This document shows positions 22,194 to 45,789 of a DNA stretch of 64,000 nucleotides, in pieces. Source of the DNA: a virus (Duplodnaviria; Heunggongvirae; Uroviricota; Caudoviricetes); IMG/VR virus record IMGVR_UViG_2698536687_000001; one strand, 5' to 3'. The translations under genes were made by a program, and so were the position numbers. Position 1 is the stretch's first letter. Every line of letters begins with the position of its first letter. The notes beneath the pieces were generated by a model. The model was not told where the DNA came from. It did no database searches and saw nothing but the letters and a program-made list of their open reading frames with translations.

Positions 22194-25100
22194 TCAGAAG
22201 GTATACTTCACGCCCAACATTGCAGATGTGTCGTTATACCCTTTGTCACCGACTTGAACACCTACATTCCCCCACAGGTTCAGTCTGGAATTTATCTGCC
22301 CATCAACACCGGCTTTTATTTCTCCGATATTACGAGCACCGTCCTGATGTACCGTCACGCCATTCATTCGAGTACCAAAATCACGGGTGTTATGCAGCCA
22401 GTTCACTTCCACAAATGGGCTGAATTCCTGGGATTTGCCTTCATCTATACGACTGTGGCTTTTAATCCATGTTTTCACGCCCAGACGGGTACGGACATTA
22501 CCGTCTCCGGTGCTTTCAACACGGGTACCGTTGCTTTCGCGGTGTTCGTCCGCTTTAACACCCATCCAGATGACCTGAGCCTGAGGCTGGACATACCACT
22601 CATTCAAACCACCTTGGTTGCCCGTAAACTCTCCCGCCTTCCAGGTATAACCAGTTTCCAGTGATGCAGTAAGTCCTTTTGATTTCCAGGATTCACTCTG
22701 CAATCCATCACCTTTAACATAGTTATCAAACCAGCTGTACTGTGCCCAAGAGTCCAGGTAAGCTCCGTTATGTGTTTCATCATTGGCATACCAGGTAGCG
22801 TACAGCCCAGTGCTGTAACCATTCACACTACCTTTTGAACGATATCCTGTGCGCACAGATTCTGTATTGTTGTGGTCATTACCGTATCCGGCCATTAAGC
22901 CAAGATGCCAGCGATCCGTCTTATTCCAACCCCACTGTGCTATATCGCCGCCCAGTTGCATAACATAACGGTTGCTTTGTGTTTTTAGCTGGTTGCTTCC
23001 GTCGCGCCAGCGATTGTGTCCACCCTCATGACGCATCCACATGCTTGTAGTTTTCAACTCACCGGTAATCACATCGGTATACTGCATTTGCCCCTGACGT
23101 TCGTGTAGGCGAGTCACGAACATTGTATTTGCAGCAGCAATGTTTGCCGTATAGCTACCAGCTTCTGGGCGAAGATCATTGTCACCTGGTGTTGGGGTCG
23201 GATTTGGCACCGGGTCCGGGTTCGGAGTNNNNNNNNNNNNNNNNNNNNNNNNNNNNNNNNNNNNNNNNNNNNNNNNNNNNNNNNNNNNNGGTCCGGGTTC
23301 GGAGTTGGATTTTCAGGTTGTTTGCCACTAGTTAGGTACCAGTTGCCATTTTTATCACCTTGTCCCCGCCCAAGAGTGTAATCATAAGCACCAGCCGCAA
23401 TTCGCCCAACTTGTACAAAGTCACCGTTAGATTGACCATCAACCTGGATAATGTTGATGCCATTGAGTGTTTGTGCCCCAATACCACCAACATTGTTTAC
23501 GGAAACAAAGGTTTTACCCTCTGTATTTCCTTTTACAACCAACTTATCGATTGGAGAGGTGTCGTCACCAAGAACACCTGAAAAGTAGATATAGCCATTT
23601 TCGCCAGTATAATCACCATTAATTGTTAAAGTGTTTTTTGCATCGCTGCCCAAGTATATAGAGCCATTATTATTAAGATGAGCAACATCCGAATCGCTAA
23701 CCATATTCCAGATGCTGTTTTTAGCTAAATTAACAATGCCACCGTTATACGCGGTTCCAGTCCAGTTGGAATTTTCTAATGCCAGATTGGCAATGCTGTT
23801 ACTATCAGCGCGAATATCGCCATTAAAGGAAGTATTCTTGACTGTAACATCAACCTTCCCTCCCACACCAGCATCATTCCTGAATGAGGAAATAAATGTG
23901 CCGTTATTCTTAATCTGGCTGCTATCTAGCGTGGCGGAAATGACTCCACCCTTGGCATTGAAATTATACCCTTTTTCACTAATCATCACCCCATTCTCTT
24001 GGGTGAGCTCAATTTTGGCATTTTGGGCAACAAATACAGAATCAGCATTATTTCCTGATACGTGAATGGATGTATTATTACCACTAATAACGGTATAATC
24101 ATCACTGCCCCATATTCCATGAGCGTAATCTCCGCTTGTTGTAAGCGATGAAGCAGAACCAAGTGTAACTTTCGCACCTGTATTTGCTGTTACACCATAC
24201 GATTTCTGCCCTTTGGTTATTATTCGGGCTGTGCCGGTATTAACAGTCGCGTCATTTTGTGCGTTTATACCGTGTGAGCCAATACCGTCTGTATTAATAA
24301 CTATTTCTTCGACGCTAATATCAGTTTTTTTACCATGCCCCCACACACCTATCGACTGCTCACCAGATGTGGATATTGTGGATGTACCCGTCAGCTCCAC
24401 GCTTGAATCAGGTGCTGAGTCTGTAGCGGATGAGGCCGTAACATATATACCTTCGGCTGATGTACCGGTAGTTTTTATTGATACACTATCTCCAGTTATT
24501 AAACCACCATTACCACCTACAATCTGTATGGCTTTAGCCTGCTCTCCTGATGTTTCAAGAGATGCATTTACCCCTAGATTTATATTCCCATTATTAGAGA
24601 TAGTTACCGCATGAGCTTGTGTGCCAGAAGTCGTTGCCTGGAGTCCTTTAGATACAGAGATACTAGCGTTATTGCCATCTGCACGTAAACCATAGCCATT
24701 TTGGCCTGAAGTAGAAATATTGACATCAGTTAATTCAGCTAAGCCACCTGACGATGCAAATACTCCCCATGCTCCTGTTCCATCAGTTTTAATCTGCGTA
24801 TTTGTTAGTGAGACATAACCGTTATTTTCGGCAGATACGCCACGAGCTCCCCATGCTTGTGATGGTTTTTTATCCCCCAGAGTGGTAATAGTAGAGTCGC
24901 TAATCACTATGTTGCTATTTTTACCAGAGCTAACAATACCTCTGGCATTATATCCAGATGTAGTAACATTAACTTTGCTTAAGGTAGCCTGGCCTCCATT
25001 TAAAATAGAAACACCACTAGCGTTTACACCAGATGTGTTAATGTCGCCTTGTTCAACAGTTAGTGTTGATTTGTCAACATTAATTCCAGTTGCATTCATC

Positions 25101-26836: not shown

Positions 26837-27397
26837 TTAGTGCATGATGTTTGCCATCTCATAGGCGTCAGCCAGTAACTCCATCTCTGACTTGTTCAGC
26901 AGGGTGAATTCTTTCTTGCCTCCAACCACACCATCGGCATGAACAGGGACCAGCCAGGGGTATTTTGCTCTTACTTCAGCCGGTGCTGCATGCTGGTGGT
27001 GCCATCTACAAAGGGGCAATTGCTTATTGTGACAACCAGGCGCGGTACGACCGGAGATATGGTGCAGAGACACCTCTTCAGATATTACTCCATGCATATA
27101 GCAGGCAATGCAGGGGAGAGCGCCAAGAGCATTGGCTATGCGCCGTTCCTCTGCCGTCGGTGTTCGTCCCTTCAAGCCACGAGATTTTATTTTTACCGCG
27201 ATTTTCCGCGTTTTGCTGGTTAGTGGGCGTTCTTTCTGTTTAGCGATACGGCGGTCGATAGTATCCCGCATTTTCTGATATTGAGATTCTCGCCAGACCG
27301 GATCAGCCAACTTCTCCCGTTGCCGAGCGATCGCTCGTTCTCTGGCTGCCTTCTGCCACTTGCGGCACTGTTCAATTTTTTGTTCGATTGTTTTCAT
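26837..27397 (-). CDS. ref: Ref, HNH-motif recombination enhancement endonuclease
   Basis: 186 aa, basic N-terminus, C-terminal CxxC...HH...CRWHH HNH-like motif; downstream of cre as in P1. Confidence 0.75.
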   Translation of the reverse strand: MKTIEQKIEQCRKWQKAARERAIARQREKLADPVWRESQYQKMRDTIDRRIAKQKERPLTSKTRKIAVKIKSRGLKGRTPTAEERRIANALGALPCIACYMHGVISEEVSLHHISGRTAPGCHNKQLPLCRWHHQHAAPAEVRAKYPWLVPVHADGVVGGKKEFTLLNKSEMELLADAYEMANIMH

Positions 27398-27486
27398 ATG
27401 GTCAAAAAAAAGGCGGCCTAATGGCCGCCTATGATGTCAAGGAGTGAAGTAATGGCAACGTCTTCGTAGTTGACAAAAACTACGAC

Positions 27487-27503
27487 TCAATTATAGCAAC
27501 CAA
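27487..27503 (-). promoter_or_regulatory. C1-operator-like site upstream of ref
   Basis: CAACCAATTAGAGCAAT, core ATTAGAGCAAT conserved. Confidence 0.45.
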
Positions 27504-27644
27504 TTAGAGCAATTAAAGTTGTTTATTTATCGCGAATCACATTTTTTCACTTCAGTACCTGTGTGCTATACTCCTTCTTGATTGATTGGATGCGGAATAC
27601 AAACCCGCTCTTTTGTGCAGCCTGGCTCCTTGCCAGGCTTTTTT

Positions 27645-27956
27645 TTATTTCATCATGGAAGCTGTTAACGCTTTGGACCTTGCTGAACTGATTGAGAGGG
27701 CTTTGTCAACGTGCCCCAAAAATTCGCCAAACTCAGACATCACTTTAGCAAAACCGCGCCGTGCTTCTTCCTCGGTGGCATTCATCACGAAATGTTCAGC
27801 ACCACGCATACTTTTGACAGGGAACGCAACGGATATTGAATCAATATCAGGCATTCTATCGCTCAGCTTTACAGTGACAATGACGGCTGGCGACTGAATA
27901 TTAGTGCTTACAGACAGCACTACATATTTTCCGTCGATTTTGAAATCCTTTCTCAT
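27645..27956 (-). CDS. cra: Small protein between cre and ref (P1 Cra position)
   Basis: 103-aa ORF with GGTGA RBS; named by position only. Confidence 0.35.
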   Translation of the reverse strand: MRKDFKIDGKYVVLSVSTNIQSPAVIVTVKLSDRMPDIDSISVAFPVKSMRGAEHFVMNATEEEARRGFAKVMSEFGEFLGHVDKALSISSARSKALTASMMK

Positions 27957-27972
27957 ATGTCACCATAAATAT

Positions 27973-27989
27973 CAAAGAATTAGAGCAAT
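27973..27989 (-). promoter_or_regulatory. C1-operator-like site between cre and cra
   Basis: CAAAGAATTAGAGCAAT, core conserved. Confidence 0.45.
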
Positions 27990-28006
27990 CATTTACGCGT
28001 TAATGG

Positions 28007-29038
28007 CTAATCGCCATCTTCCAGCAGGCGCACCATTGCCCCTGTTTCACTATCCAGGTTACGGATATAGTTCATGACAATATTTACGTTGGTCCAGCCA
28101 CCAGCTTGCATGATCTCCGGTATTGAAACTCCGGCACGGGCCATATCTCGCGCGGCTCCGACACGGGCACTGTGTCCAGACCAGGCCAGGTACCTCTGGC
28201 CAGAGTCATCCTTAGCCCCGTAAATCAATCGGTGAGTTGCTTCAAAAATCCCTTCCAGGGCGCGAGTTGATAGCTGGCTGGTGGGTGATGGCGAGGCAAC
28301 ACCATTTTTTCTGACCCGGCAAAACAAGTAGTTATTCGGATCATCAGCCACACCAGAGACAGAAATCCATCGCTCGACCAGTTTAGTTACCCCCAGGCTA
28401 AGTGCCTTCTCTACACCTGCGGTGCTAACCAGCGTTTTCGTTCTGCCAATATGGATTAACATTCTCCCACCGTCAGTACGTGAGATATCTTTAACCCTGA
28501 TCCTAGAAATTTCGGCTATACGTAACAGGGTGTTATAAGCAATCCCCAGAAATGCCAGATTACGTATATCCTGACAGCGATCGCTATTTTCCATGAGTGA
28601 ACGAACCTGGTCGAAATCAGTGCGTTCGAACGCCAGTGCCTGTTTTGCACGTTCACCGGCATCAACGTTTTCTTTTCGGATCCGTCGCATGACCAGTGAA
28701 ACAGCATTACTGTCACTTGGTCGTGGCAGCCCGGACCGACGATGAAGCATGTTTAGTTGGCCCAAATGTTGCTGGATAGTTTTTACTGCCAGACCGCGCG
28801 CCTGAAGATATAGAAGATAATCGCGAACATCTTCAGGTTCTGCGGGAAACCATTTCCGGTTATTCAACTTGCACCATGCCGCCCACGACCGGCAAACGGA
28901 CAGAAGCATTTTCCAGGTATGCTCAGAAAACGCCTGGCGATCCCTGAACATGTCCATCAGGTTCTTGCGAACCTCATCACTCGTTGCATCGACCGGTAAT
29001 GCAGGCAAATTTTGGTGTACGGTCAGTAAATTGGACAT
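28007..29038 (-). CDS. cre: Cre tyrosine recombinase
   Basis: 343 aa beginning MSNLLTVHQNLPALPVDATSDEVRKNLMDMFRDRQAFSEHTWKMLLSVCRSWAAWCKL, the well-known Cre sequence, with catalytic RHRY residues in the C-terminal domain. Confidence 0.98.
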   Translation of the reverse strand: MSNLLTVHQNLPALPVDATSDEVRKNLMDMFRDRQAFSEHTWKMLLSVCRSWAAWCKLNNRKWFPAEPEDVRDYLLYLQARGLAVKTIQQHLGQLNMLHRRSGLPRPSDSNAVSLVMRRIRKENVDAGERAKQALAFERTDFDQVRSLMENSDRCQDIRNLAFLGIAYNTLLRIAEISRIRVKDISRTDGGRMLIHIGRTKTLVSTAGVEKALSLGVTKLVERWISVSGVADDPNNYLFCRVRKNGVASPSPTSQLSTRALEGIFEATHRLIYGAKDDSGQRYLAWSGHSARVGAARDMARAGVSIPEIMQAGGWTNVNIVMNYIRNLDSETGAMVRLLEDGD

Positions 29039-29045
29039 TTAACAC

Positions 29046-29267
29046 TCAGATAATGGTTTTAAGTAAAGTGTACAGGATCGGCTCTGCCTTTACCTGTTTA
29101 TGGTTCTCGTCATAGAAACGCCAGCGACCGCGCGTGCGTTCTATTTTCTCTTCACCGCGCGATAATGACAGTTGACAACTATCACGATCAAACCCTTTTG
29201 CCCGCCAGTAACCACGGTTTTTCTCAAGCTCAATATGAGTGGACACTTTAGCAGCTGAATATCCCAT
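29046..29267 (-). CDS. Unverified small ORF between loxP and cre
   Basis: 73-aa ORF with AGGTG 5 nt upstream of ATG; lies in the cre promoter region. Confidence 0.25.
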   Translation of the reverse strand: MGYSAAKVSTHIELEKNRGYWRAKGFDRDSCQLSLSRGEEKIERTRGRWRFYDENHKQVKAEPILYTLLKTII

Positions 29268-29455
29268 TTTTCACCTCTGATTGATTGGTGGTGCTAAGTG
29301 CGCTACGCAAAATCTGGAGCACTAACACTGCCAACATTTCGCAGATTTTACGTAGCGCAACCTTGATCAAATGATCAAGTGATCACTATTTGACCTGATA
29401 AGGTATTGAACTGTATGGATTTACAGGTAAATTGATCATATTCAATAACCCTTAA

Positions 29456-29489
29456 GATAACTTCGTATAATGTATGCTATACGAAGTTA
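29456..29489. other. loxP: loxP recombination site
   Basis: Exact ATAACTTCGTATA-ATGTATGC-TATACGAAGTTAT. Confidence 0.98.
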
Positions 29490-29533
29490 TCAGGTCCGAA
29501 GAGGAGTTTACGTCCAGCTGCGCACAAAAATCA

Positions 29534-29640
29534 ATAATTATTAGAGCAATAAATTTTGAGAGAAAAATCCCACTCCACCAGCTAAAAACTGGATTGTTTT
29601 TCATAGTTGTTTGACAATTGCTCTAATAAATTATAGTTTT
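29534..29640 (+). promoter_or_regulatory. C1-controlled promoter/operator region (Op99-like) for coi-c1
   Basis: Operator-like 17-mers at 29534-29550 (reverse) and 29617-29633 (ATTGCTCTAATAAATTA), the latter directly after a TTGACA -35 hexamer (29611-29616) and overlapping a TATAGT -10. Confidence 0.6.
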
Positions 29641-29871
29641 GCCGCCGTTACGTAATACGACTTTGGATTCACTATTTAATGTGTCTTCAGCGTTGTAGAG
29701 CGGCTCAGAAGGAAATGAGCAAACAGGGAAACCTTATACAACGGCATTACAGCTATGCATTGCTCATCTTACACACAGCGCAATGTTGTTAGATTACCCC
29801 AGCATGGATCATGGGTGAAACAGTAGGTCAGAGCTTCAGGCTCTGTGTTGTCAATACAGTGAGGCATAATT

Positions 29872-30081
29872 ATGGCTTTCATTCAACCAACCATCGACGA
29901 CGTTAGACATTGCTCTAACGCTTTATCTGTAGACCCTGCCGAAACCGACGCTGCCCGCGCCATTGCTGAACACTACTCAAAGATATCCAATCAGGAGTAC
30001 CGCATCACCCAAGACGACCTGGATGACCTCACTGACACAATCGAATATCTCATGGCAACTAACCAGTTAGACTCACAATAA
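29872..30081 (+). CDS. coi: Coi, C1 inactivator
   Basis: 69 aa, immediately upstream of c1 in the same orientation. Confidence 0.85.
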   Translation: MAFIQPTIDDVRHCSNALSVDPAETDAARAIAEHYSKISNQEYRITQDDLDDLTDTIEYLMATNQLDSQ

Positions 30082-30191
30082 ATGCACTAATAAATCTATT
30101 ATTTTTGTTTGATCCCTCTATAATATAGGTCAGTAATGACCGGTTTTCTCAGCCGGGCGTTATTGACCATGTCAATTCTGGAGGAGGATCA

Positions 30192-31043
30192 ATGATAAAT
30201 TATGTCTACGGCGAACAACTGTACCAGGAGTTCGTCAGCTTCAGGGATCTCTTTCTAAAAAAAGCTGTTGCACGCGCCCAACACGTTGATACAGCCAGCG
30301 ACGGTCGTCCTGTACGCCCGGTTGTCGTTCTACCGTTCAAAGAAACTGACAGCATTCAGGCTGAAATTGATAAATGGACTTTAATGGCGCGGGAACTGGA
30401 ACAGTACCCAGACCTCAATATCCCAAAGACTATTTTATATCCAGTGCCTAACATCCTTCGCGGTGTGCGCAAGGTTACAACTTATCAGACAGAAGCTGTG
30501 AACAGCGTCAACATGACCGCTGGCCGCATTATTCATCTGATTGATAAGGACATTCGCATCCAAAAAAGCGCGGGGATCAATGAGCACAGTGCGAAATACA
30601 TAGAGAACCTGGAAGCAACAAAAGAGCTAATGAGGCAGTACCCGGAGGATGAAAAATTCCGTATGCGCGTACACGGCTTTAGCGAAACAATGCTGCGCGT
30701 CCACTACATTTCCAGTAGCCCTAACTACAATGATGGTAAATCAGTTAGTTACCATGTGCCACTGTGTGGCGTGTTTATCTGCGATGAAACTCTCCGTGAT
30801 GGAATTATCATCAACGGTGAATTCGAAAAAGCAAAATTTAGCCTTTATGACTCCATAGAACCGATCATCTGCGACCGCTGGCCGCAAGCAAAAATATATC
30901 GCCTGGCAGATATTGAAAATGTAAAAAAACAAATTGCCATCACTCGCGAAGAGAAAAAGGTTAAGTCAGCCGCATCAGTTACGCGCAGCCGTAAAACCAA
31001 GAAGGGGCAGCCAGTAAACGACAACCCCGAAAGCGCGCAATAA
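30192..31043 (+). CDS. c1: C1 immunity repressor
   Basis: 283 aa beginning MINYVYGEQLYQEFVSFRDLFLKKAVARAQHVD, matching P1 C1 as recalled. Confidence 0.95.
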   Translation: MINYVYGEQLYQEFVSFRDLFLKKAVARAQHVDTASDGRPVRPVVVLPFKETDSIQAEIDKWTLMARELEQYPDLNIPKTILYPVPNILRGVRKVTTYQTEAVNSVNMTAGRIIHLIDKDIRIQKSAGINEHSAKYIENLEATKELMRQYPEDEKFRMRVHGFSETMLRVHYISSSPNYNDGKSVSYHVPLCGVFICDETLRDGIIINGEFEKAKFSLYDSIEPIICDRWPQAKIYRLADIENVKKQIAITREEKKVKSAASVTRSRKTKKGQPVNDNPESAQ

Positions 31044-31052
31044 ATTATGCCC

Positions 31053-31318
31053 NNNNNNNNNNNNNNNNNNNNNNNNNNNNNNNNNNNNNNNNNNNNNNNN
31101 NNNNNNNNNNNNNNNNNNNNNNNNNNNNNNNNNNNNNNNNNNNNNNNNNNNNNNNNNNNNNNNNNNNNNNNNNNNNNNNNNNNNNNNNNNNNNNNNNNNN
31201 NNNNNNNNNNNNNNNNNNNNNNNNNNNNNNNNNNNNNNNNNNNNNNNNNNNNNNNNNNNNNNNNNNNNNNNNNNNNNNNNNNNNNNNNNNNNNNNNNNNN
31301 NNNNNNNNNNNNNNNNNN
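31053..31318. other. Assembly gap (266 N)
   Basis: Run of N starting 9 nt after the c1 stop. Confidence 0.99.
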
Positions 31319-31997
31319 CCGGTTGCTGTTCTTTTTGTCGGAAGTAGCTGTCTTCCAGTTTTTCAAAGAATGCCCATGCCTGATCGGTTTCGAGCATTTT
31401 AGCGTGACGGGCAGCTCCTCGTTCTGTCCAGAGGATGAGAGAGCGCGCTTTGGGGGAGACTGGATTTTGTGAGTAGTTTAAAGCTACCCGCAAATTTTTC
31501 AGCTCATCGCCAATAACCTTGAAAAAGTGCTTCGCTTCAACAAAGCGTACTTTGTTCTCATGATGATTCTGGCGAATGCGAATCGCTTCTGTACCATACC
31601 CCTTAGCAAGAGTTTCGGTTGTTACGACACGCACTCCCTGCCACTCCAGAACGGGAATTTCATCCGGCTGATTCTGAACAACCACCAGTTCCGATTCCTG
31701 AACTGAAGGTGCATAAATTTTTTCTGATTTAACGTTAGTTGCTTTCATTCTGTGTGCCTCCTTGCGTGCTTCGGCTGCGACGGTTGCGTAATTCAGATGA
31801 CCCTGTTCGAGCAGGTATTCACGGATATCGGTTAGCAGAATGCGGTGAACCGCGTTTTTGTCCTTTCTCCGGTAAAGTTGTTTGGTGATCATGAAGTAGT
31901 TGGCAATAACGCCAGGTATATCCCTGGTACTGATACAGGCAGTGTGCTGTTCAATTGCCTCGATCATCTCTTCACGGGTAACTAACGATGTTCTCAT
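31319..31997 (-). CDS. ant: Antirepressor-like protein, copy 1 (variant allele, 3' part lost in the gap)
   Basis: First 132 aa identical to copy 2, then a diverged central segment; the six-frame ORF 30975-31997 reads through N-derived X residues. Confidence 0.6.
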
Positions 31998-32215
31998 AGT
32001 CCCTCCTGAGCAGAAGCGTTAACAGGGAGGCACCAGTAACTGAGAGAATTGCGTGAATCAGTGGAAAAACGGGCAGAGAAAATACATGGGGCGTCAGGAA
32101 GCTGAGAACGGGCCTCATCTTCTGTCGGTGCAATAACGAAATGATAGTGACGTTTTTGGCAGGAGTAAAAGCGCCAGATAAATTCAGGATGAATTGGGGT
32201 AGGGACAGTAGCCAT
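31994..32215 (-). CDS. icd: Icd-like 73-aa ORF, copy 1, coupled to ant
   Basis: 73 aa, stop overlaps ant start; 2 aa different from copy 2. Confidence 0.5.
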   Translation of the reverse strand: MATVPTPIHPEFIWRFYSCQKRHYHFVIAPTEDEARSQLPDAPCIFSARFSTDSRNSLSYWCLPVNASAQEGL

Positions 32216-32554
32216 AATGGCAGCCTCCTTTGACTAAGTTAAGGAGCTACCGCGTGAGGTCTCAATCTCAATGGCGGTAGCACTGACTGGGTTGAGACTA
32301 CCGGCGTCAAAGGGAACCGGCCTGCCTTTCGGCAGCCCAGCCAGCACTACCATTGATTTCGGAGCTAAACGCTACGTATGGCTGTGCGATGGCATGACAC
32401 AAAAAAAGACGCTTTCGGCGTCTGTGTCGCCTTTGACATTATCCGGGGTCTCAATCCCGGCACCCGTTTTAATGAGGTGCCTGATAAGCATAAACCGAAA
32501 ATGCCTCAAGGCGCAAGAGGTCAGGTTCAATGTAGCATCGGTAGTTAAAAAACA

Positions 32555-32571
32555 CAATTTATTAGAGCAAG
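32555..32571 (-). promoter_or_regulatory. C1-operator-like site (Op51-like) upstream of immI-like copy 1
   Basis: CAATTTATTAGAGCAAG. Confidence 0.45.
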
Positions 32572-32576
32572 TTTTT

Positions 32577-32673
32577 ACTCATTAAGCCATGCCAGAGCTT
32601 CATCAACCTGCGCTTCGTCTTCGGCGCTAAGCACTTCATCCTGGGGAACATAATCCGCCAGCATAGCGAAACC
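32577..32673 (-). pseudogene. Duplicated 3' fragment of pacB at the tandem-duplication junction
   Basis: Near-identical to pacB 3' end (34407-34503), then switches at 32673/32674 to a copy of the c1 3' end. Confidence 0.55.
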
Positions 32674-32714
32674 GCGCAATAAATTATGCCCGGCATCAAC
32701 CGGGCATTCTTCCA

Positions 32715-33827
32715 TTATTCAGCCGCCACCGGTTTTAACAAGCCAGCATCGAGCAGTTTACGCGTCAACCACTGCTGGCCTTTACCCGTTAATTGAGGCG
32801 TCAACCGTATCTGGTAGCCATCTTCATCATCCAGCACCACTTCTTTCACCGTGAAATACCCCGCGTTGATGTACTGCTGGAACGGCACATTTTTACGTCC
32901 ACCGGACGCTATCAGGATGCCGTTCTCCCGTAACCAGGCAAACAGCGCGTTTTGCTTAAGTCCAACAACCTTTGCAAAATTCCCAATCAGGATCCCTTTA
33001 GCTACTGATACCCGGTCGGCAAAATCGACTTTAGGAGCGGCGGCCACCAGCTGCTGATTTAGCTGGTGGGCTTTCTGTTCCAGAAGCTGCTTTTGTTCAG
33101 CCAGTTCGGCAGCCAGGCGCAGAGCTTCTGGAAGCGTCTGGGGGATTGCAACCGGTTGCTGTTCTTTTTGCCGGAAGTAGCTGTCTTCCAGTTTTTCAAA
33201 GAATGCCCATGCTTCATTTGTGTCCACGATCTTAGACATGCGTGCAGCGCCGCGCTCTGTCCAGAGTGTAAGGCTTCTGGCGTTCTTACCAACAGAGTAA
33301 CTTCCGGTTACTCTGTTCTTAAATTCTCTTAATTTTAAACCAGTTAGAAGAAAGTAATGCTTACCTTCTTCAAAGCGGTCAAGGTTGCGAGACAAATTGT
33401 TGCGAATATTGGCTTCATCGACCCCATACCCTCTAGCAAGAGTTTCGGTTGTCACGACACGTACTCCCTGCCATTCCAGAACGGGAATTTCATCCGGCTG
33501 ATTCTGAACAACCACCAGTTCCGATTCCTGAACTGAAGGTGCATAAATTTTTTCTGATTTAACGTTAGTTGCTTTCATTCTGTGTGCCTCCTTGCGTGCT
33601 TCGGCTGCGACGGTTGCGTAATTCAGATGACCCTGTTCGAGCAGGTATTCACGGATATCGGTTAGCAGAATGCGGTGAACCGCGTTTTTGTCCTTTCTCC
33701 GGTAAAGTTGTTTGGTGATCATGAAGTAGTTGGCAATAACGCCCGGTATATCCCTGGTACTGATACAGGCAGTGTGCTGTTCAATTGCCTCGATCATCTC
33801 TTCACGGGTGACTAATGACGTTCTCAT
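32715..33827 (-). CDS. ant: Antirepressor-like protein, copy 2 (full length)
   Basis: 370 aa; C-terminal region ([17 protein letters not shown]) resembles the KilA-C antirepressor domain; convergent with c1 across a GCCCGG...CCGGGC hairpin. Confidence 0.7.
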
Positions 33828-34045
33828 AGTCCCTCCTGAGCAGAAGCGTTAACAGGGAGGCACCAGTAACTGAGAGAATTGCGCGAATCGGTAGAAAAGC
33901 GGGCAGAGAAAATACAGGGAGCATCCGGAAGCTGAGAACGTGCCTCATCTTCTGTCGGTGCAATAACGAAGTGATAGTGACGTTTTTGGCAGGAGTAAAA
34001 GCGCCAGATAAATTCAGGATGAGCAGGGGTAGGGATAGTAGCCAC
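33824..34045 (-). CDS. icd: Icd-like 73-aa ORF, copy 2
   Basis: 73 aa, stop overlaps ant start; arrangement as P1 icd-ant. Confidence 0.5.
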   Translation of the reverse strand: MATIPTPAHPEFIWRFYSCQKRHYHFVIAPTEDEARSQLPDAPCIFSARFSTDSRNSLSYWCLPVNASAQEGL

Positions 34046-34384
34046 AATGGCAGCCTCCTTTTGCTAATTTAAGGAGCTACCGCGTGAGGTCTCAATCTCA
34101 ATGGCGGTAGCACTGACTGGGTTGAGACTACCGGCGCAAAAGGGAACCGGCCTGCCTTTCGGCAGCCCAGCCAGCACTACCATTGATCTCTGAGCTAAAC
34201 GCTACGTATGGCTGTGCGATGGCATGACACAAAAAAAGACGCTTTTGGCGTCTGTGTCGCCTTTTGCATTATCCGGGGTCTCAATCCCGGCACCCGTTTT
34301 ACTGAGGTGCCTGATAAGCATAAACCGAAAATGCCTCAAGGCGCAAGAGGTCAGGTTCAATGTAACATCGGTAGTTAAAAAACA

Positions 34385-34401
34385 CAATTTATTAGAGCAA
34401 A
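34385..34401 (-). promoter_or_regulatory. C1-operator-like site (Op51-like) upstream of immI-like copy 2
   Basis: CAATTTATTAGAGCAAA, next to pacB stop. Confidence 0.5.
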
Positions 34402-34404
34402 TAT

Positions 34405-35889
34405 TCATTCATTAAGCCATGCCAGAGCTTCATCAACCTGCGCTTCGTCTTCGACGCTAAGCACTTCGTCCTGGGGAACATAATCCGCCAGCATAGCGAA
34501 ACAATATGTATCCCAATGGTCTGGTGAGTGCAGGTTGAGTTTTTTCTTCATATCCTCCTTACTCATCACCTTCCATTGACCTGCGGAGTTAATCCCTACA
34601 GGGATTTTCGACGCTTCCTCAATAGTTTCATTACCCTTATCCAGTCTCATACGACCAGATTTTACGGCCTCTGCGGCTTGAACGTTGGCATAAGCACGTT
34701 TATCAAAGTACAGGCTCTTATCTTCACGGCTATGCATCTTTTTACCCCAGCGTATACGCTGTACGGTAATACCATAATACTCGTACATCAGATCCGCCGT
34801 TGCTTTACCCAGGCCATCGCCGTCTATCGCTATGGTGATATTGGGGAATCGCTCAGGATTACATTCTGCGAAAATTTTGGCGGCAAGCTGCGTTTCTGTA
34901 ACGTCTGTGTATTCCAGCATTCGATAGTTGATTACACGGCGTTTATTTCGCTGGCCGGACACCATCATGATATTGATAACGGACTTATCCCGTCCCGTAC
35001 CACCAGCAACGTCCACACATGCAAGCCAGCCCCATCCTTTTGCAATCTTGACTTTCCGCCGCGTTGCACGTTCAACCTCATCACGTCCAAGAAGGAAGCC
35101 ATCCTGTGATTTAGGGAATAGGCCGCGTACCTTAATCATGTACATAGGGTTATCACGCCCGCCGTACTCCGCCAGCTTCATTTTGATAAATGCTGGCGTT
35201 ACCAACGGTGATTCCTCACTGTTAAGCGTGATCGCCGTATAAACGCCATCAGGGTTACCAGGACGCTTGGCCAGTTTATGGTGTGTATCGTAGAAATAGC
35301 CGCTTGGGCGTGTAGGCTGTGACAGCAATAAGATGCGGTTATCCTGTCCGGTAAGAGCACCGGTGATGATACCGAAAGCTCTATCACTGACACCGGAGGC
35401 TTCATCGATAATATACAGAAGATGATCTGCGTGTTCACCGGCGAGAGCTTCTTCACTTCCCAGACGAAAGCCCTTCGGTACTACAGTCCATACACCTTTA
35501 CCAGTAACCTCATAGAAAGCGGTTTCTGTCAGAACAAAATAATCAGCAAGCCATGGAAAACGGCTGGTGGCAGTAGCCCAGTTTATCTTGATGTACTTGA
35601 ATATACCGGTCATTACCTGCTGAATTTTGTTCGCAACGATAATGGCTCGGGCACCGGGATACATGATTATGAACAACATGATCATGATAGAAGTCATGTC
35701 TGATTTCCCGGTACCGTGACCAGACGAAACAGATGTCTTGCTACCCTGTTCCTGCACAGACTCAATAATCAGATCCTGCTGCCAGGTAGGTGTTTTGCCG
35801 AACAAAACATCAGCGGCCGCAATCCAGTCATAACGATATAGCGCCACCAGCTCGCGCCAACGTGGATCCGTTACGCAACTTCTGGCCAT
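34405..35889 (-). CDS. pacB: PacB, terminase large subunit
   Basis: 494 aa, terminase ATPase region; directly downstream of pacA. Confidence 0.85.
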
Positions 35890-37082
35890 TAATCATCATC
35901 CCCGTATAGCTTGCGGGTAACTTCTTCGTCTTCCTCCTCGTCTTCGTCCAGGTCTTGTTCCAGCCATGGGTCGTTTGATACACCTTCAGTATCAACATCT
36001 CCATAACCGCCTGTATCAACGATATCGGCGATTTCTTCCCTACGCTGCTCAATCCACAATGCGGCATCGGCGCGGCGGTTGGCGGCCCGTTCTCGCGCAA
36101 CTTTGTCCAGATCTTCAAGAGAAGGGCCACCAACGGCTGTTTGCCTTTCCTCATCATCGGTATTGGTCTTAGGAGCACGCAGATCGGCTTTGATTTGCTC
36201 CAGCATCAGGGGCGGCACTTTCCCGCCATGCGCCTCGATGAATTCAGCTGCTTCCAGCACTGACCAGTTATTTTCACGCTTTCGTTCGTATGCCAGCTTA
36301 ACAATGCCAGCTTGCCCCATAGATAAAGCGTGCTTTTCCGCCTCCCGGCTTTCTTTTCGATAGTTATTCCGGATGCTGTAAATGGTGTTGATCAGGCTGC
36401 TTATCTGCGCGGAACAGCTGTTTAGCATGCTCGCGATACGGTATTCAGGCGGAGTACCTTCATCATCGTCTTTTTGCTGATCGCGCATTTCCTGCACCAG
36501 GCGAATACACGTATCCCTGGCGTTCTCCAGCATAAGGAGATGAGAAAGAGACTTTTCCAGAAGAGTGGTTTCCAGAACATCGGCCCCGGACCGACGCAAC
36601 ATAGCGCGCGCGGCCTTCCGCGCTTCAACGTTATCTATCAGGTAATCGCCAGCTTCGAATTCAAAGCGTTCACCATCATCATCCAGGGTGTCGCGTTCCA
36701 GGCGATCACGTAAGGTCCGGTGGGCGCGGGTGATCACGTCATGATCATCAGAACGATCATTTATGCGCTTATTTTGGCGCTTCGCATTCTCGACTGCGGC
36801 ACTGACAACGGCATTAACCCTTTGTTTTTCCGCTATTTCAGCCGCAATGTGATCACCTGCATGTTGATCATTAGAGTGATCAATGATCATGCTTTTTAGT
36901 GGCTTCCTGACTGGCTTATTTGGCTTGCGGCTGTCCGCTGTCCTGGTGTCTTCTTTGAAGGCACGGAGATAACGACGTGCAGTATTAGGGTTAAGATTAA
37001 ACTCGGCGGCATACTGTGCGATGGTGTAACCACCATCTCGCGCCAGGCGAGCAAAATTCTTCTTGTGATCGTCCCAGGTCAC
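35889..37082 (-). CDS. pacA: PacA, terminase small subunit containing the pac site
   Basis: 397 aa, acidic C-terminus; the pac hexamer clusters lie inside the coding sequence. Confidence 0.85.
36731..36890. other. pac: pac packaging site
   Basis: Three hexamers (TGATCA at 36731 and 36742, CGATCA at 36754) and four TGATCA (36850, 36865, 36878, 36885) about 90 bp apart, each with a GATC Dam site; matches the known P1 pac architecture. Confidence 0.7.
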
Positions 37083-37167
37083 TTATGCTTCCTTTCGTAA
37101 AAACTCTTTTTGACGCGAGGGTAACGAAAGTCACATGTCAAAAGGCCCGGAACGGGCAAGCAATCAA

Positions 37168-37590
37168 TCAGATACGTACGGATGTGGCATTACCGTAATG
37201 ACGGTGCTGACGGGCTACCTTATTGAAAAGTTGACGCGCCATTACCCAAGGCTGGTGTTCCCGGCGTTCCTTTTCGTCCTGCGTCATATAGAGTTCGTTC
37301 TGGAGTTTTTCATCAAACCGGCGCGGCGCGCGGCTGCGGCGAAAGAATTCAGGATTCAGAGAGTGGATCTGAAATCTACGTGGGCGTGTACTGTCATCAA
37401 TCAAAACAGACGAATACTTAGACACAGCGATAGCCTTTAAGCGCAGATAAACGTCGCGCTTATCGACATCCAGATGCGGGTATTCCTTTTCAAGGATTGC
37501 TGCGAGTTCTTTCGCTGATAGAAGAGATTTGGTGCGGATCATGTAATCCGCAATCTCATACGATGTTATTCGTAAGTGATTTATTTCCAT
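37168..37590 (-). CDS. lpa: Lpa, late promoter activator
   Basis: About 140 aa from MEINHLRITSYEIADYM (AGGGA RBS); the six-frame ORF begins 10 codons earlier at 37620. Confidence 0.7.
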   Translation of the reverse strand: MEINHLRITSYEIADYMIRTKSLLSAKELAAILEKEYPHLDVDKRDVYLRLKAIAVSKYSSVLIDDSTRPRRFQIHSLNPEFFRRSRAPRRFDEKLQNELYMTQDEKERREHQPWVMARQLFNKVARQHRHYGNATSVRI

Positions 37591-37690
37591 GAAGTGGCGT
37601 CCCTGCCAGTTAAGTAACATCCTGTCACCTACTGATTAGCCCATGTCAACTAATCAACGTGGAATATAATACCCTAGATTAAATAAATAG

Positions 37691-37707
37691 CAATACATTA
37701 GAGCAAT
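37691..37707 (-). promoter_or_regulatory. C1-operator-like site upstream of lpa
   Basis: CAATACATTAGAGCAAT, core conserved. Confidence 0.45.
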
Positions 37708-37708
37708 T

Positions 37709-38752
37709 TTATCTAACGTTCGACGAGTGACTTGTGATAGCGCCGACTCCAAGCGCGTAATCAAAGAACAATCGTTGATGCATCGCCAGCCTACCGTGCG
37801 TCTTCTCCCAATTATCGCGGTCACGCTCAATATCACGTTGGCATGACTGGCACAGAGGAATTGCGTAAATGTCATGCGCGCATAATCGACTATGACGAAC
37901 GATATAAGGCGTAATGTGAGCGCCAGCTCCCGCCGCTCCACACCCACAGCATGGACGGGAAGCAACAAAGTCCATGTACTCAGGTAATTTTAGCGATTGC
38001 AGTTTTGGGATTTTGAAATGCGCCATGCCAGGGTCGGAGTCAACATCCACAGGGCATACTTTTGCACGCATCGGCGCGGCGCGTTCTTCCATCATCTGAA
38101 CATATGCTGTAGCGCGATCGTCATACGGGCGAATATCCGCCTCTTTCAGAGGTCCGCTATCCTGCGTTGCGGCTTTCATCTTATTTATTGATATACGGCA
38201 AACTTCTTCCGGCATCAGGTGCATCATGTTGCGCATGAAAGCCCACCAGCACAGTTCCTGAATACTTAAATCATGGCCATCTGAAAGCCCCATTTCCTGA
38301 CGGGCGACATCCAGTATCCAGTTAACGCGATTATTATGCAGCGTTTCTTTCAGCTCATTAAAACCACGCATCCGGTAATGGTTATCGTGATGCCAGCACA
38401 ACAACACCGCGCTATTATCTCGTTCAGCGTGGACAATATGGTTGTCACACCAGCTACGATCTGCGGCCTGGCATCGCCCCTCTTTCCTGCGCAACCACGC
38501 CACCAGCGCGTCAATTCCACCAATACGACGAAACAGCTCATCGCTGTTAAAAAACGGCTGCAACGCCTCATTTGTTGCCATGGTTTGCTCGGAAACAACG
38601 AGGCCGTCGTCCATGTGCTCGATTAACTCACGCGGCACCGGCTCCATAATAAATTTACGGCCAGCCTCCACCAGCTTTCTGACTTCCTGATCCACTTTGA
38701 ATGTGGCGACGCCAAGCTCTTTTTGTACAAAGGGAGTAATAATGGCTTTCAC
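37709..38752 (-). CDS. pdcB: PdcB-like cysteine-rich protein
   Basis: 347 aa with C-terminal CCGCG...CQSCQ cluster; position as P1 pdcB. Confidence 0.5.
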
Positions 38753-38779
38753 ATCACACCTTTCATCACTGATTGGGCT

Positions 38780-38959
38780 TTATCTGCTGCCCGGCATTCT
38801 CTGTTTAAGCACAACCATTTCCTGACGGCATAACACAGCAATAGCGGTCCTGGCACCAATTTGCTTACCAACCAGGTATTGCTTTACCTCGCGGCGACTC
38901 ACGCCATCAAGAAGCATCTTTAACGCTTCACGGGACAACTTGTTGTATTTACGTGCCAT
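38780..38959 (-). CDS. pdcA: PdcA-like small protein
   Basis: 59 aa from ATG 38959 (GGAG RBS, 4 nt after doc stop). Confidence 0.4.
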   Translation of the reverse strand: MARKYNKLSREALKMLLDGVSRREVKQYLVGKQIGARTAIAVLCRQEMVVLKQRMPGSR

Positions 38960-38963
38960 TAAT

Positions 38964-39344
38964 CTACTCCGCAGAACCATACAATCTACGTAACGTGTCG
39001 GCGACAGAAGATACAGATATCTCGCCAGTCGCAGCGCCTACAGTAAGGTCTGCCAGTTCAGGTGAATCAAATACCTGCACCCCGTTACGGCGTAGAAATA
39101 ACAGCGCACTGTTTAGCGCGGTACGCTTATTGGCATCATTGAATATATGCCCTCTCGCTGTAGCCACCAGGTAGGTGGCGGAGACTTCGAAAAGGTCGGT
39201 GATCTCTTCGTAGGCAACTCTGGCCTGAACTCTCCCGATAATGGCCTCTGCCCTACCCGGATCTGACATTCCCGGCAGGCCGCCGTAGCGGTTTATATTC
39301 GCATCATGAAGCGCAATAAGTTCTTCCGGTGATATATGCCTCAT
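38964..39344 (-). CDS. doc: Doc toxin (Fic-fold kinase)
   Basis: 126 aa [25 protein letters not shown]...[13 protein letters not shown], matching P1 Doc. Confidence 0.95.
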
Positions 39345-39565
39345 TATCGGTTAACCAGTTCCTTGTTGGTGGAGTCCAGGGTGTCAAACAGGGATGCAAA
39401 TTCAGCATCCAGCGCCGCTTTTTTGTAGGCTTCGAAAGTAGCCTTGCTGACAATTACTGCTGGCTCACGGCCTCTGCGGGTGATTTCAACCTCTTCCCCG
39501 GCCTCAACATTGTTGAGCACTTCAGAAAGGTTGCCGCGCGCGGTACGGAAGTTAATGGATTGCAT
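39344..39565 (-). CDS. phd: Phd antitoxin
   Basis: 73 aa [39 protein letters not shown], overlaps doc start. Confidence 0.9.
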
Positions 39566-39569
39566 AAAT

Positions 39570-39600
39570 ACCTCGTGTACTCGTTATGTGTACACAATTA
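39570..39600 (-). promoter_or_regulatory. phd-doc promoter/operator palindromes
   Basis: GTGTAC (39575) and TGTGTACACA (39587) directly upstream of phd. Confidence 0.5.
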
Positions 39601-39741
39601 TAAACTTCACAGGCATAAAGCACCAGCACTTTGCGGCTTAACAAACCTCTAGGCAGGTCATTCGTAGCCTAATGTCCGAACTGCTAAAGCATCCAAGTTG
39701 CTGTAGAATCACCGCCAATTACATAAGCCTGAAATAAGTGG

Positions 39742-41304
39742 ATGAAAATGACAAGTATTCAACAACGTGCAGAGCTTCATCGTCAAATCTGGCAAATTGC
39801 TAACGATGTCAGGGGTTCGGTCGATGGATGGGATTTTAAGCAATACGTTCTGGGCGCACTTTTCTACCGTTTTATCAGCGAAAATTTTTCCAGTTATATT
39901 GAAGCCGGTGATGACAGTATCTGTTATGCGAAACTGGATGACAGCGTAATTACTGATGACATTAAAGACGATGCCATCAAAACTAAAGGCTACTTCATCT
40001 ACCCCAGTCAGCTTTTCTGCAACGTAGCTGCGAAAGCAAATACTAATGACAGACTGAATGCAGATTTAAACAGCATCTTCGTTGCTATCGAAAGTTCTGC
40101 TTACGGTTATCCTTCAGAAGCTGACATCAAAGGTTTGTTTGCTGATTTCGATACCACCAGTAACCGCCTGGGTAACACCGTTAAAGATAAAAATGCCCGC
40201 CTAGCTGCGGTTCTGAAAGGGGTTGAAGGGTTAAAACTTGGTGACTTCAACGAACATCAGATTGACCTGTTCGGTGATGCCTATGAGTTCCTGATCTCTA
40301 ACTATGCGGCAAATGCCGGTAAGTCAGGCGGCGAGTTCTTTACACCGCAGCACGTCTCTAAGCTGATTGCACAACTGGCTATGCACGGGCAGACCCACGT
40401 TAACAAAATCTACGACCCGGCAGCAGGCTCCGGTTCGCTGTTGTTGCAGGCTAAAAAACAGTTTGATGACCATATCATCGAAGAAGGTTTTTTTGGTCAG
40501 GAAATCAACCATACGACCTATAACCTGGCGCGTATGAACATGTTTTTGCACAACATCAACTACGACAAGTTTGATATCAAGCTGGGCAATACGCTGACTG
40601 AACCGCACTTCAGAGATGAAAAACCGTTTGATGCCATCGTTTCTAACCCGCCGTATTCGGTGAAATGGATTGGCAGCGATGACCCGACGCTGATTAACGA
40701 TGAACGTTTTGCCCCAGCTGGCGTTCTGGCCCCCAAATCCAAAGCTGACTTTGCGTTTGTATTACATGCGCTGAACTATCTTTCTGCCAAAGGTCGTGCT
40801 GCGATTGTTTGCTTCCCGGGTATTTTTTACCGTGGCGGTGCGGAGCAGAAAATCCGTCAGTATCTGGTCGACAATAACTATGTCGAAACCGTGATTTCAC
40901 TGGCACCGAATCTGTTCTTTGGCACCACCATTGCCGTCAATATTCTGGTGTTGTCTAAACATAAAACCGATACCAACGTTCAGTTTATTGACGCCAGCGA
41001 GCTATTCAAAAAAGAGACTAATAACAACATCCTGACTGATGCCCATATCGAACAGATTATGCAGGTATTTTCCAGCAAGGAAGATGTTGCTCATCTGGCA
41101 AAATCTGTCACGTTTGAGGCCGTTGTCGCTAATGACTATAACCTGTCGGTAAGCAGCTATGTGGAAGCGAAAGATAACCGCGAAATTATCGATATCGGTG
41201 AGCTGAATGCTGAGCTGAAAACCACGGTCAGCAAAATCGACCAGTTGCGTAAAGATATTGATGCGATTGTGGCTGAAATTGAAGGCTGCGAGGTGCAGAA
41301 ATGA
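39742..41304 (+). CDS. hsdM: Type I restriction-modification methyltransferase subunit (type IC, EcoR124-like)
   Basis: 520 aa, AdoMet motif [10 protein letters not shown] and NPPY catalytic motif. Confidence 0.95.
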
Positions 41305-42551: not shown

Positions 42552-42672
42552 TTGACCATTGCTACCGACCGGGCCACCTTAACACCCGGTCAGTATATAG
42601 ACTATTTTTTACACGCTGGAAGTCACAATTACCGCCCTTCCGGCCCTTGCCAGACGGCACAAAGGATGCGCT

Positions 42673-45600: not shown

Positions 45601-45789
45601 GAAGCAGCAAAACGCTATATTCGCACGTCTTTAAAACGCGAATACGCCACCGAAAATGGCACAGAATTAAACGAAACATTACCAAAACTTAGTCCATTGA
45701 ATCCGCAATATAAAACGAAAAAACAGGCAGTTTTCCAGAAAATCGTCTCGTTTATTGAGAAGTTTAAAGGCGTAGGCGGAAAAATATAG
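42673..45789 (+). CDS. hsdR: Type I restriction endonuclease subunit
   Basis: 1038 aa; helicase motif I (TGSGKT) and DEAH-type motif II (FDECH). Confidence 0.95.

Follow-up and report, generated by a model that had tools for sequence, protein, structure and literature searches.

Organization of the c1–pacB interval

The stretch of DNA analyzed here, 64,000 nucleotides in length and hereafter referred to as the window, includes the c1–pacB interval of a P1-like E. coli plasmid-prophage. A unit of 1830 bp is present twice in this interval, in a head-to-tail arrangement (Table 1). In line with the earlier note, which had described the duplicated unit, a direct-repeat period of 1830 was recovered (1833 through the diverged core), with copy 1 being interrupted by undetermined bases. 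At the joint between the copies, pacB-derived sequence ending in ...GCGAAAC extends up to 32672 and c1-derived sequence, CGCGCAATAAATTATGCCC, begins at 32673; the true junction (32672|32673) thus lies one base to the left of the boundary first placed at 32673/32674. As also proposed there, the joint between pacB and c1 remnants is of the tandem-duplication type, in which the end of the unit is joined to its start and a single novel junction is formed.

Table 1. Coordinates of the features at the c1–pacB locus.
Feature	Position	Strand	Remarks
c1 repressor gene, 283 aa	30192–31043	+	Pfam Phage_P7_repressor_C1
Scaffold gap, 266 N	31053–31318	.	
Copy 1	31319–32672		interrupted by 266 N
ant allele 1, 5' part, 226 codons	31319–31997	−	N-terminal region and ORF6N domain
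icd-like ORF allele 1, 73 aa	31994–32215	−	ATG start; stop overlaps ant start (ATGA)
Copy-1 b2, GUCAAAGG	32227–32234	−	overlaps icd ribosome-binding site
Copy-1 a2, TTGAGAC	32259–32265	−	
Predicted c4 antisense RNA allele 1	32270–32357	−	Rfam RF01695, 75.4 bits; loops b' CCUUUGAC 32306–32313, a' GUCUCAA 32292–32298
isrK-like leader RNA, copy 1	32402–32480	−	Rfam RF01394, 60.2 bits
Copy-1 leader sites	a1 32448–32454; b1 32430–32437		intrinsic terminator hairpin 32401–32423
Copy-1 C1 operator (predicted)	32555–32571	−	overlaps −35 TTGTGT 32552–32557; −10 TACATT 32529–32534
Displaced pacB 3' fragment, last 98 nt	32575–32672	−	backbone-type SNPs; ends at novel junction 32672|32673
Copy 2	32673–34502		
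Repeat node R, 498 bp	32673–33170	.	c1 last 10 nt, terminator hairpin, ant 3' part
Bidirectional terminator hairpin	32686–32707		inside R
ant allele 2, 370 aa	32715–33827	−	ORF6N residues 116–200; KilAC/ANT 258–359
Foreign tract	33432–36138	.	copy-2 cassette, pacB, pacA 3' end; 53 differences common to L113, L116 and L117
icd-like ORF allele 2, 73 aa	33824–34045	−	GTG start
Copy-2 b2, GCAAAAGG	34057–34064	−	
Copy-2 a2	34089–34095	−	
Predicted c4 antisense RNA allele 2	34100–34187	−	Rfam RF01695, 75.0 bits; loops b' CCUUUUGC 34136–34143, a' GUCUCAA 34122–34128
isrK-like leader RNA, copy 2	34232–34310	−	Rfam RF01394, 58.2 bits
Copy-2 leader sites	a1 34278–34284; b1 34260–34267		terminator 34231–34253
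Copy-2 C1 operator (predicted)	34385–34401	−	−35 34382–34387; −10 34359–34364
pacB, full length, 494 aa	34405–35889	−	foreign-type SNPs vs. closest backbone relatives

Comparison of the two copies over 31600–32672 gave 84–100% identity per 50-nt window, with at least 90% in all windows except one. Over 31369–31600, the segment coding for the ORF6N domain of Ant, identity was just 50–72% and indels were present, which agrees with the previous description of a strongly diverged, mosaic antirepressor centre with much closer flanks. The 73-aa ORFs differ, as stated before, at two residues (V4I and I8A), and their start codon is ATG in copy 1 vs. GTG in copy 2. Because the record is a short-read scaffold and the gap falls inside the structure, the 3' end of the copy-1 ant gene is not seen. 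From the interval size in the relative L114 together with copy 2, the expected content of the gap is 460 bp, against the 266 N written; the missing 460 bp correspond to the 3' part of copy-1 ant and are identical to 32692–33151. The sequence of R is the same in the relatives L113, L114 and L104.

Components of the two cassettes

On the basis of its sequence, each unit is a complete immI-type cassette of the P1 kind, encoded on the minus strand. A C1 operator in each copy had been claimed previously, and a predicted site was indeed located in both, each with two mismatches to ATTGCTCTAATAAATTT and aligned with P1 Oc4/P2c4, the same alignment by which the promoter position was set. In the whole window, 14 matches of this type (up to two mismatches to ATTGCTCTAATAAATTT) were found vs. 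0.31 by chance. All six a and b sites are present in both copies at positions equivalent to those annotated in P1. Further, the C4 matches span the full length of the Rfam model in both copies, and the C4 and isrK scores exceed the respective gathering scores of 45 (RF01695) and 50 (RF01394). These two RNA genes, c4 and isrK, occur in both copies and were absent from the first account of the locus.

By homology, transcription starts at a sigma-70 promoter lying under the C1 operator and proceeds through the leader with a1/b1, c4 and the a2/b2 sites into icd, which is translationally coupled to ant. By analogy with P1 and P7, the a' and b' loops of the processed C4 RNA would then pair with a2 and b2 and stop icd translation, so that ant would remain unexpressed and the prophage repressed. 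Likewise, Ant is expected to inactivate C1, and C4, which would repress icd/ant in trans, could also silence ant when it is brought in by a superinfecting phage with the same specificity.

Comparison with immI of P1 and P7 and with other systems

The immI-like identity assigned in the earlier note was borne out by a feature-by-feature alignment with P1 immI, covering Oc4/P2c4, a1, b1, c4, a2, b2 and icd. The Icd protein shares 81% identity with P1 Icd, at equal length, and Ant, which contains ORF6N and ANT domains, shares 57% identity with P1 Ant1 (E=2e-131), reaching more than 90% in the C-terminal 150 aa. In common with P1 and P7 immI, the cassettes carry a C1 operator over the promoter, a1/b1, c4, a2/b2 on the ribosome-binding site of icd, an Icd of 73 aa, an icd/ant overlap and conserved N- and C-terminal regions of Ant. 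They also appear to follow the logic that distinguishes P1 from P7, in which few loop and target bases determine specificity. However, the a and b sequences of both copies differ from the P1 ones, an ORF6N domain occupies the centre of Ant, unlike in P1/P7 immI, and the Rfam model matched by the leader is isrK instead of c4-a1b1. Location also differs, since immI of P1 and P7 lies between sim and kilA-repL, whereas the cassettes described here, two of them stacked, lie between c1 and pacB. The statement in the earlier note that P1 immI is not adjacent to c1/pacB proved right: it is found at 48 kb, and only 24 bp separate the stop codons of pacB and c1 in P1. The canonical site between sim and kilA-repL is not the one occupied by these cassettes, and p1506-2, a relative with a closed sequence, carries a canonical immI separately.

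For RCS47 and for pTZ20_1P (Venturini et al. 2019, PMC6906374), the presence of one ant cassette in the c1–pacB interval is already on record, the published descriptions listing ant and two short hypothetical orfs but neither c4 nor isrK. Both RCS47 (NC_042128), which belongs to the allele-1 b class, and pTZ20_1P carry the same cassette at the same site, yet in one copy each. In PLSDB, 308 plasmids cover at least 80% of the cassette. A single cassette at c1–pacB is thus common and already known, and it is the tandem pair alone that is unusual. Of the IMG/VR loci in which this c4 occurs, roughly half lack the pacB and C1-operator context. A terminated isrK-like leader upstream of an antirepressor operon is also found in the Gifsy-1 isrK-orf45-anrP region of Salmonella (RF01394). 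This likeness is drawn from the leader and the type of operon, whereas the promoter here differs in bearing a P1 C1 operator.

Two alleles with different predicted antisense specificities

Sequence comparisons indicate that both copies existed beforehand as natural alleles and are not a drifted duplicate. Copy 1 matches, at 1354/1354 positions, the one cassette carried by each of L113, L114 and L116–L119, and copy 2 shows 99.7% identity to NZ_CP054193.1. A duplication in which just the centre was later exchanged does not hold, since both copies match separate natural alleles of different c4 specificity. Between the copies, b1, b' and b2 change together, while the a specificity is common to both, and the two alleles encode Ant proteins with different ORF6N domains. 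Among 73 other loci from IMG/VR and GTDB, 46 belonged to one b class and 27 to the other, with no mixed cases, such that b1/b'/b2 covary in 73/73. In line with this, the computed energy of the b'/b2 duplex was approximately −15 kcal/mol for cognate pairs (GUCAAAGG with CCUUUGAC in copy 1, GCAAAAGG with CCUUUUGC in copy 2) vs. approximately −9 kcal/mol for cross pairs.

The two b classes are thus predicted to be heteroimmune, although partial cross-repression between them may occur because the a sites are shared. P1-like phage-plasmids are important as vehicles of resistance genes. With at least two antisense-specificity classes and strict three-site covariation, the c1–pacB cassette would make a second, widespread locus of theirs subject to the heteroimmunity logic known classically from P1 and P7.

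Foreign tract and backbone relatives

The closest backbone in PLSDB was at 98.3%, and nearer relatives were obtained from exact-protein look-ups. The differences of the window that are shared with respect to L113, L116 and L117 all fall within the foreign tract, which runs 1.6 kb past the repeat into pacB and pacA. Beyond 36138, L113 and the window show no difference up to 45620, and L114 is 100% identical to the window over 27128–31052 and shows zero mismatches and one gap over 36335–45632. With regard to phasing, the pacB fragment at the junction is of the backbone type and the full pacB beside allele 2 is of the foreign type.

Contig ends around the gap and searches for the junction

The contig before the gap ends at 31052, exactly 19 nt past a G/C branch at 31033, the point that corresponds to the junction, and between the start of the contig after it and the first SNP distinguishing the alleles the distance is likewise exactly 19 nt. 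The two gap-flanking 19-mers recur as the first and last 19-mers of R, and the corresponding 20-mers are unique. We infer from these contig ends that they match the pattern expected in a k=20 de Bruijn graph for a repeat that is entered by two paths and left by two; the default word size of CLC is 20. Natural c1 ends have G at the branch base in 44/44 cases and pacB sequences have A after GCGAAAC in 56/56, so the second way into R is not a natural c1 or pacB variant.

As one piece (231-bp query), the junction was absent from all three collections searched (72,556 plasmids, 50,697 phage records and the complete genomes of 5,426 E. coli), and its exact 26-nt pattern had no match in GTDB genomes, IMG/VR or JGI metagenomes. 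The 46-aa ORF that crosses it was recorded in no assembly but this one. Tandem cassettes were found at none of the 51 loci compared, two c4 genes in one stretch at 0/71 IMG/VR loci, and ten assemblies with the same HsdS allele each had one cassette or none. Several matching places in NZ_CP117679.1, NZ_AP018809.1 and CP045689.1 were due to an unrelated 1.1-kb insertion or to other ant loci, with no tandem.

Is the tandem arrangement real?

The earlier note left the choice between a real duplication and a scaffold built from two co-existing variants. While this is undecidable from the assembled sequence alone, the evidence leans towards a real tandem of two natural alleles, to which we assign a probability of roughly 0.65. 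Its main competitor is a scaffolding or co-assembly artefact, according to which the source strain, E. coli G27 from Belgium, or the DNA prepared from it, contained two plasmid variants or two P1-like elements. One of these would have carried allele 1 and the other allele 2 with the foreign pacB/pacA tract, and their contigs would have been abutted without N. The record is a draft scaffold with estimated gap sizes, the junction is on record nowhere else, every relative has a single cassette and both alleles are ordinary natural ones, all of which count in favour of such an artefact. Moreover, R in copy 2 is of the backbone type, lacking the SNP at 32865 of the four allele-2 plasmids compared (L004, L107, L109 and L112), which agrees with reads that contain just one R sequence. 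In a RecA+ host, in addition, a direct repeat of 1.8 kb that includes identical stretches of 300 bp should be unstable, which counts against the tandem. However, without junction reads the left edge of R would be unbranched and the c1 contig should continue through R, whereas it halts precisely at the 19-nt distance from 31033, and natural variants that could supply the branch number 0/44 for c1 and 0/56 for pacB. Further, the allele-1 contig stops 34 nt past the last SNP, where a closing bubble would give 19 nt, and the overlap between the pacB fragment and the c1 tail is just 5 nt (CGAAA), too short for a k-mer mis-join. A second full P1-like element should also shatter a k=20 assembly, but the 64-kb window has only two gaps and, outside the tract, shows zero mismatches to L114 over 3.9 kb and 9.3 kb. 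Taken together, these points make the artefact unlikely, albeit the most serious of the alternatives.

It is improbable, though less so than divergence in situ (see below), that the junction is real and the arrangement another one, such as a subpopulation of plasmids, an amplified array or a collapsed cointegrate of the two elements. Direct repeats recombine readily, k-mers alone do not fix the order around a repeat that has two entries and two exits, and the estimated gap of 266 departs from the expected 460. Nevertheless, the haplotypes seen in the pacB fragment and in the complete pacB gene are phased in agreement with the scaffolded order, and the lack of foreign-type SNPs elsewhere in the backbone speaks against a collapsed cointegrate. 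The head-to-tail geometry with a single novel junction would also be produced by an old duplication in situ, followed by drift or by a swap of the central ant segment only. This explanation is very hard to sustain, as single-copy alleles in other plasmids match copy 1 completely and copy 2 nearly so, the b1/b'/b2 class switch is coordinated as it is across the 73 loci, and the foreign tract reaches well beyond the repeat. Drift after duplication was, in particular, ruled out by the 100% and 99.7% matches to natural alleles.

Proposed origin of the tandem and its possible meaning

If the tandem is real, the resident plasmid may at first have had allele 1 only, like its closest relatives, and would later have acquired the foreign tract, which brought in allele 2 together with pacB and the pacA 3' end. 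Homologous recombination in pacA could account for one end of this tract, and an illegitimate joint between the resident pacB, at the base 98 from its 3' end, and the last 10 nt of c1 for the other. It would fit equally well that the 1830-bp unit was first duplicated in tandem and that homologous recombination, from inside R, then replaced the copy next to pacB. The outcome would be two independently promoted head-to-tail cassettes with two predicted C4 specificities at the locus, to which a canonical immI outside the window would likely add a third. Several C4 specificities would widen the protection against antirepressor-mediated induction by heteroimmune relatives. Only tentatively, and at somewhat less than even odds, do we propose that the locus reflects natural stacking of two heteroimmune c4-icd-ant cassettes, in which that of a rival was captured by one homologous and one illegitimate crossover and multi-class resistance resulted.

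Were this the case, it would represent immunity stacking in an antisense-RNA system. A real tandem would be a natural example of a prophage taking the immunity cassette of a competitor, and would offer a simple test system to relate antisense specificity to superinfection and induction among co-circulating phage-plasmids; otherwise, the record would be an instructive false duplication in a bacterial draft scaffold. Finally, a near-identical plasmid was found via Lpa in the Logan assembly of ERR1156148, with a single allele-1 cassette. It was considered as strain G27 itself, but its few backbone differences and its single cassette identify it as a relative.

Two immI-type cassettes between c1 and pacB

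The replicon is a P1-like plasmid-prophage, and the window, with 14 C1-operator-like sites vs. 0.31 expected by chance, forms the initial 64 kb of NCBI scaffold LOOY01000014.1 (92,570 bp; assembly GCA_001576035.1). In one paper, the strain is given as E. coli G27, Belgium. The doubling of a unit between c1 and pacB, claimed in an earlier note, was confirmed, with a period of 1830 and two occurrences. The junction described there is also present in the scaffold sequence, but its exact joint lies at 32672/32673, one base to the left of the position first assigned. The sequence across it is ...CATAGCGAAAC/CGCGCAATAAATTATGCCC..., which fuses pacB, at base 98 from its 3' end, to the final 10 nt of c1; CGAAA is all that the two sides share.

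Positions of the cassettes and neighboring features in the window
Feature	Position	Strand	Remark
loxP	29457-29490		
c1	30192-31043	+	
Copy 1	31319-32672		left end lost in gap
Copy 2	32673-34502		
pacB	34405-35889	-	
pacA	35889-37082	-	
N-run	23229-23289		61 N
N-run	31053-31318		266 N

Each unit carries, on the minus strand, a C1 operator with two mismatches to the consensus; the promoter that it overlaps (TTGTGT-17-TACATT) can be aligned to P1 Oc4/P2c4. The leaders matched Rfam isrK (60.2 and 58.2 bits; gathering score 50) and are closed by an intrinsic terminator hairpin, and a c4 antisense RNA was detected in both units (RF01695; 75.4 and 75.0 bits; gathering score 45). A 73-aa ORF shows 81% identity to P1 Icd, and its stop codon overlaps the ant start; ant encodes a 370-aa protein 57% identical to P1 Ant1 (>90% in the C-terminal 150 aa) with ORF6N and KilAC/ANT domains, the former encoded by the diverged center of the gene. 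Further, P1 a1, b1, a2 and b2 aligned onto sites complementary to the loops of the local c4 RNA, in agreement with the immI-like identity proposed earlier. Together, operator, leader, c4, Icd/Ant homology and site alignment identify the unit, on sequence grounds, as an immI-type cassette. No further c4, icd or ant was found elsewhere within the window; the canonical immI position falls farther along the scaffold.

A 39-aa ORF (34064-34183 and 32234-32353, minus strand; 2879-2998 in L001) lies nearly wholly on the c4 RNA gene. RefSeq plasmids annotate it as 'ash family protein', and GCA_001576035.1 lists it as a gene of 39 aa that matches Phage_ASH weakly; the CDS call is probably spurious, made on top of an RNA gene.

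Antisense specificity of the two copies

The a sites are common to both copies (TTGAGAC paired with GTCTCAA). The b1, b' and b2 sequences change together, being GTCAAAGG, CCTTTGAC and GTCAAAGG in copy 1 and GCAAAAGG, CCTTTTGC and GCAAAAGG in copy 2. When a conserved c4 pattern was used to retrieve 73 loci from IMG/VR and GTDB, 46 belonged to one b class, 27 to the other and none was mixed; the pacB and C1-operator context was present in about half of these loci and absent in half. The b'/b2 duplex was predicted at approximately -15 kcal/mol in cognate pairs and -9 kcal/mol in crossed ones. Judged by the example of P1 and P7, the two classes are probably heteroimmune, and the common a site may allow some cross-talk between them.

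A known site for a single cassette

As the earlier note stated, immI is not adjacent to c1 and pacB in P1, where 24 bp separate the two stop codons and immI is found at 48 kb, in contrast with the c1–pacB location of the cassettes in the window. Single cassettes at this position are already on record, and the module is of a known kind in a known place. Copy 2 was covered to at least 80% by 308 PLSDB plasmids; phages RCS47 and JL22 have the same cassette, also between c1 and pacB; and Venturini et al. 2019 (PMC6906374) described 'two short hypothetical orfs and ... ant ... between pacB and c1, as in ... RCS47'. The closed relative p1506-2 carries both a c1–pacB cassette and a canonical immI (c4, c4-a1b1, icd, ant, kilA, repL), the latter with a third a/b specificity.

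The exact Ant protein of copy 2 (allele 2) was also found off this site, in a P1-like contig (L124; GCA_053639375.1, 987-5613), where another icd-ant pair, in divergent orientation, adjoins it near cre; these cassettes thus change sites, and pairs that are not in tandem occur. In three independent contigs from Logan, all with the cassette of copy 1 (allele 1; L116, L117 and L119), the sequence breaks off at the same base (~33006 equivalent), 825 nt into ant, which points to a further copy of the KilAC-encoding 3' part of ant at another place in those genomes. As a repeat partner, the canonical ant of p1506-2 was checked; it is only 81% identical over this part.

Native and foreign alleles

The two copies are different natural alleles. 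Copy 1 matched, at 1354/1354 positions, the lone cassette found in each of six other assemblies (L113, L114, L116-L119), and one of them, L114 (GCA_022969335.1), matched the window at 100% identity over 27128-31052 and with no mismatch and one gap over 36335-45632, which marks copy 1 as the native allele of this backbone. Copy 2 was 99.7% identical to NZ_CP054193.1. Differences were listed against three relatives (L113, L116 and L117); the 53 common to all three, 11 of them in pacB and pacA, were confined to 33432-36138, which indicates a foreign tract spanning copy 2, pacB and the 3' end of pacA. Beyond these, L116 had one extra difference at 44464, L117 one in the tract at 35484, and L113 none up to 45620.

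Within 34798-36138, 8 of the 11 pacB/pacA SNPs also differed from the allele-2 plasmids L107, L109 and L004, and the tract donor is therefore not among the sampled sequences. The HsdS allele of the window, recorded in only 53 blocks of the collection, served to find close relatives; the type I restriction-modification operon (hsdM, hsdS, hsdR; 39742-45789, plus strand) adjoins phd/doc.

A probable tandem: evidence for and against

The heteroallelic tandem is a new arrangement of single occurrence and is probably real, with a probability of about 0.65. The record was scaffolded from short reads, and a gap interrupts the structure; the junction was found in no other record when plasmids, complete E. 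coli genomes, phages, GTDB, IMG/VR and JGI metagenomes were searched; a 46-aa ORF spanning it is on record solely in GCA_001576035.1. The tandem was absent from all 51 informative loci compared, which had one cassette or none each (one with an unrelated insertion), and two c4 genes at one locus occurred in 0/71 IMG/VR loci. All this would favor an artefact in which two variants were present without a real junction, a reading that we nevertheless regard as less likely. The pre-gap contig ends at 31052, exactly 19 nt past 31033, where c1 (G) and the junction (C) diverge, and the post-gap contig starts at 31319, exactly 19 nt ahead of the first SNP between the alleles. Each of these 19-mers is found again at one end of R (32673-33170), a 498-bp repeat node comprising the c1 end, the terminator hairpin and the 3' part of ant, while the 20-mers are unique. 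A k=20 de Bruijn graph would produce this pattern from a repeat that has two entries and two exits; for the left boundary to arise, the reads must therefore contain k-mers of the form ...C+CGCGCAATAAATTATGCCC.

With two variants and no junction, the c1 contig should continue through R, yet it stops. Nor does any natural c1 supply the branch base C (44/44 have G), and natural pacB invariably has A after GCGAAAC (56/56). Further, the allele-1 contig ends 34 nt past its last SNP, whereas a closing bubble would give 19 nt; phasing is coherent, with a backbone-type pacB fragment at the junction and a foreign-type full pacB beside allele 2; and the absence of foreign SNPs from the scaffold outside the tract speaks against a second full P1-like element. 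R in copy 2, as placed, is backbone-type, while the allele-2 plasmids L004, L107, L109 and L112 (4/4) have a SNP at 32865; this is neutral, as it agrees with a duplication and a later homologous replacement that began within R, and also with a single R sequence in the reads. That the junction is real but belongs to another arrangement, or to only part of the population, seems very improbable.

Probable origin and predicted consequence

Two routes to a real heteroallelic tandem both fit the data. In one, the resident cassette would first have undergone a 1830-bp tandem duplication, and a heteroimmune relative would then have replaced the pacB-proximal copy by homologous recombination, with crossovers in R and pacA; the other would be a single event with one homologous and one illegitimate end. 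More speculatively, the foreign tract presumably lies just downstream of pac in the packaging direction, where an infecting genome would have a recombinogenic end. Assuming that the gap holds R, each cassette has an operator, a promoter, a leader, c4, icd and ant of its own, and a terminator hairpin (32686-32707) lies between them. The prophage would then make two C4 specificities at this locus.

Other features of the scaffold

The 61-N gap sits within a repetitive coding region and, since the 16-mer GGTCCGGGTTCGGAGT is common to both flanks, probably hides a short tandem repeat or represents an unmerged overlap. A 1095-aa DNA methyltransferase ORF (59562-62849, minus strand) with MethyltransfD12 and DNA_methylase matches, plus Hint_2 and LAGLIDADG matches, appears to carry an intein; relatives have a 1013-aa or split version.
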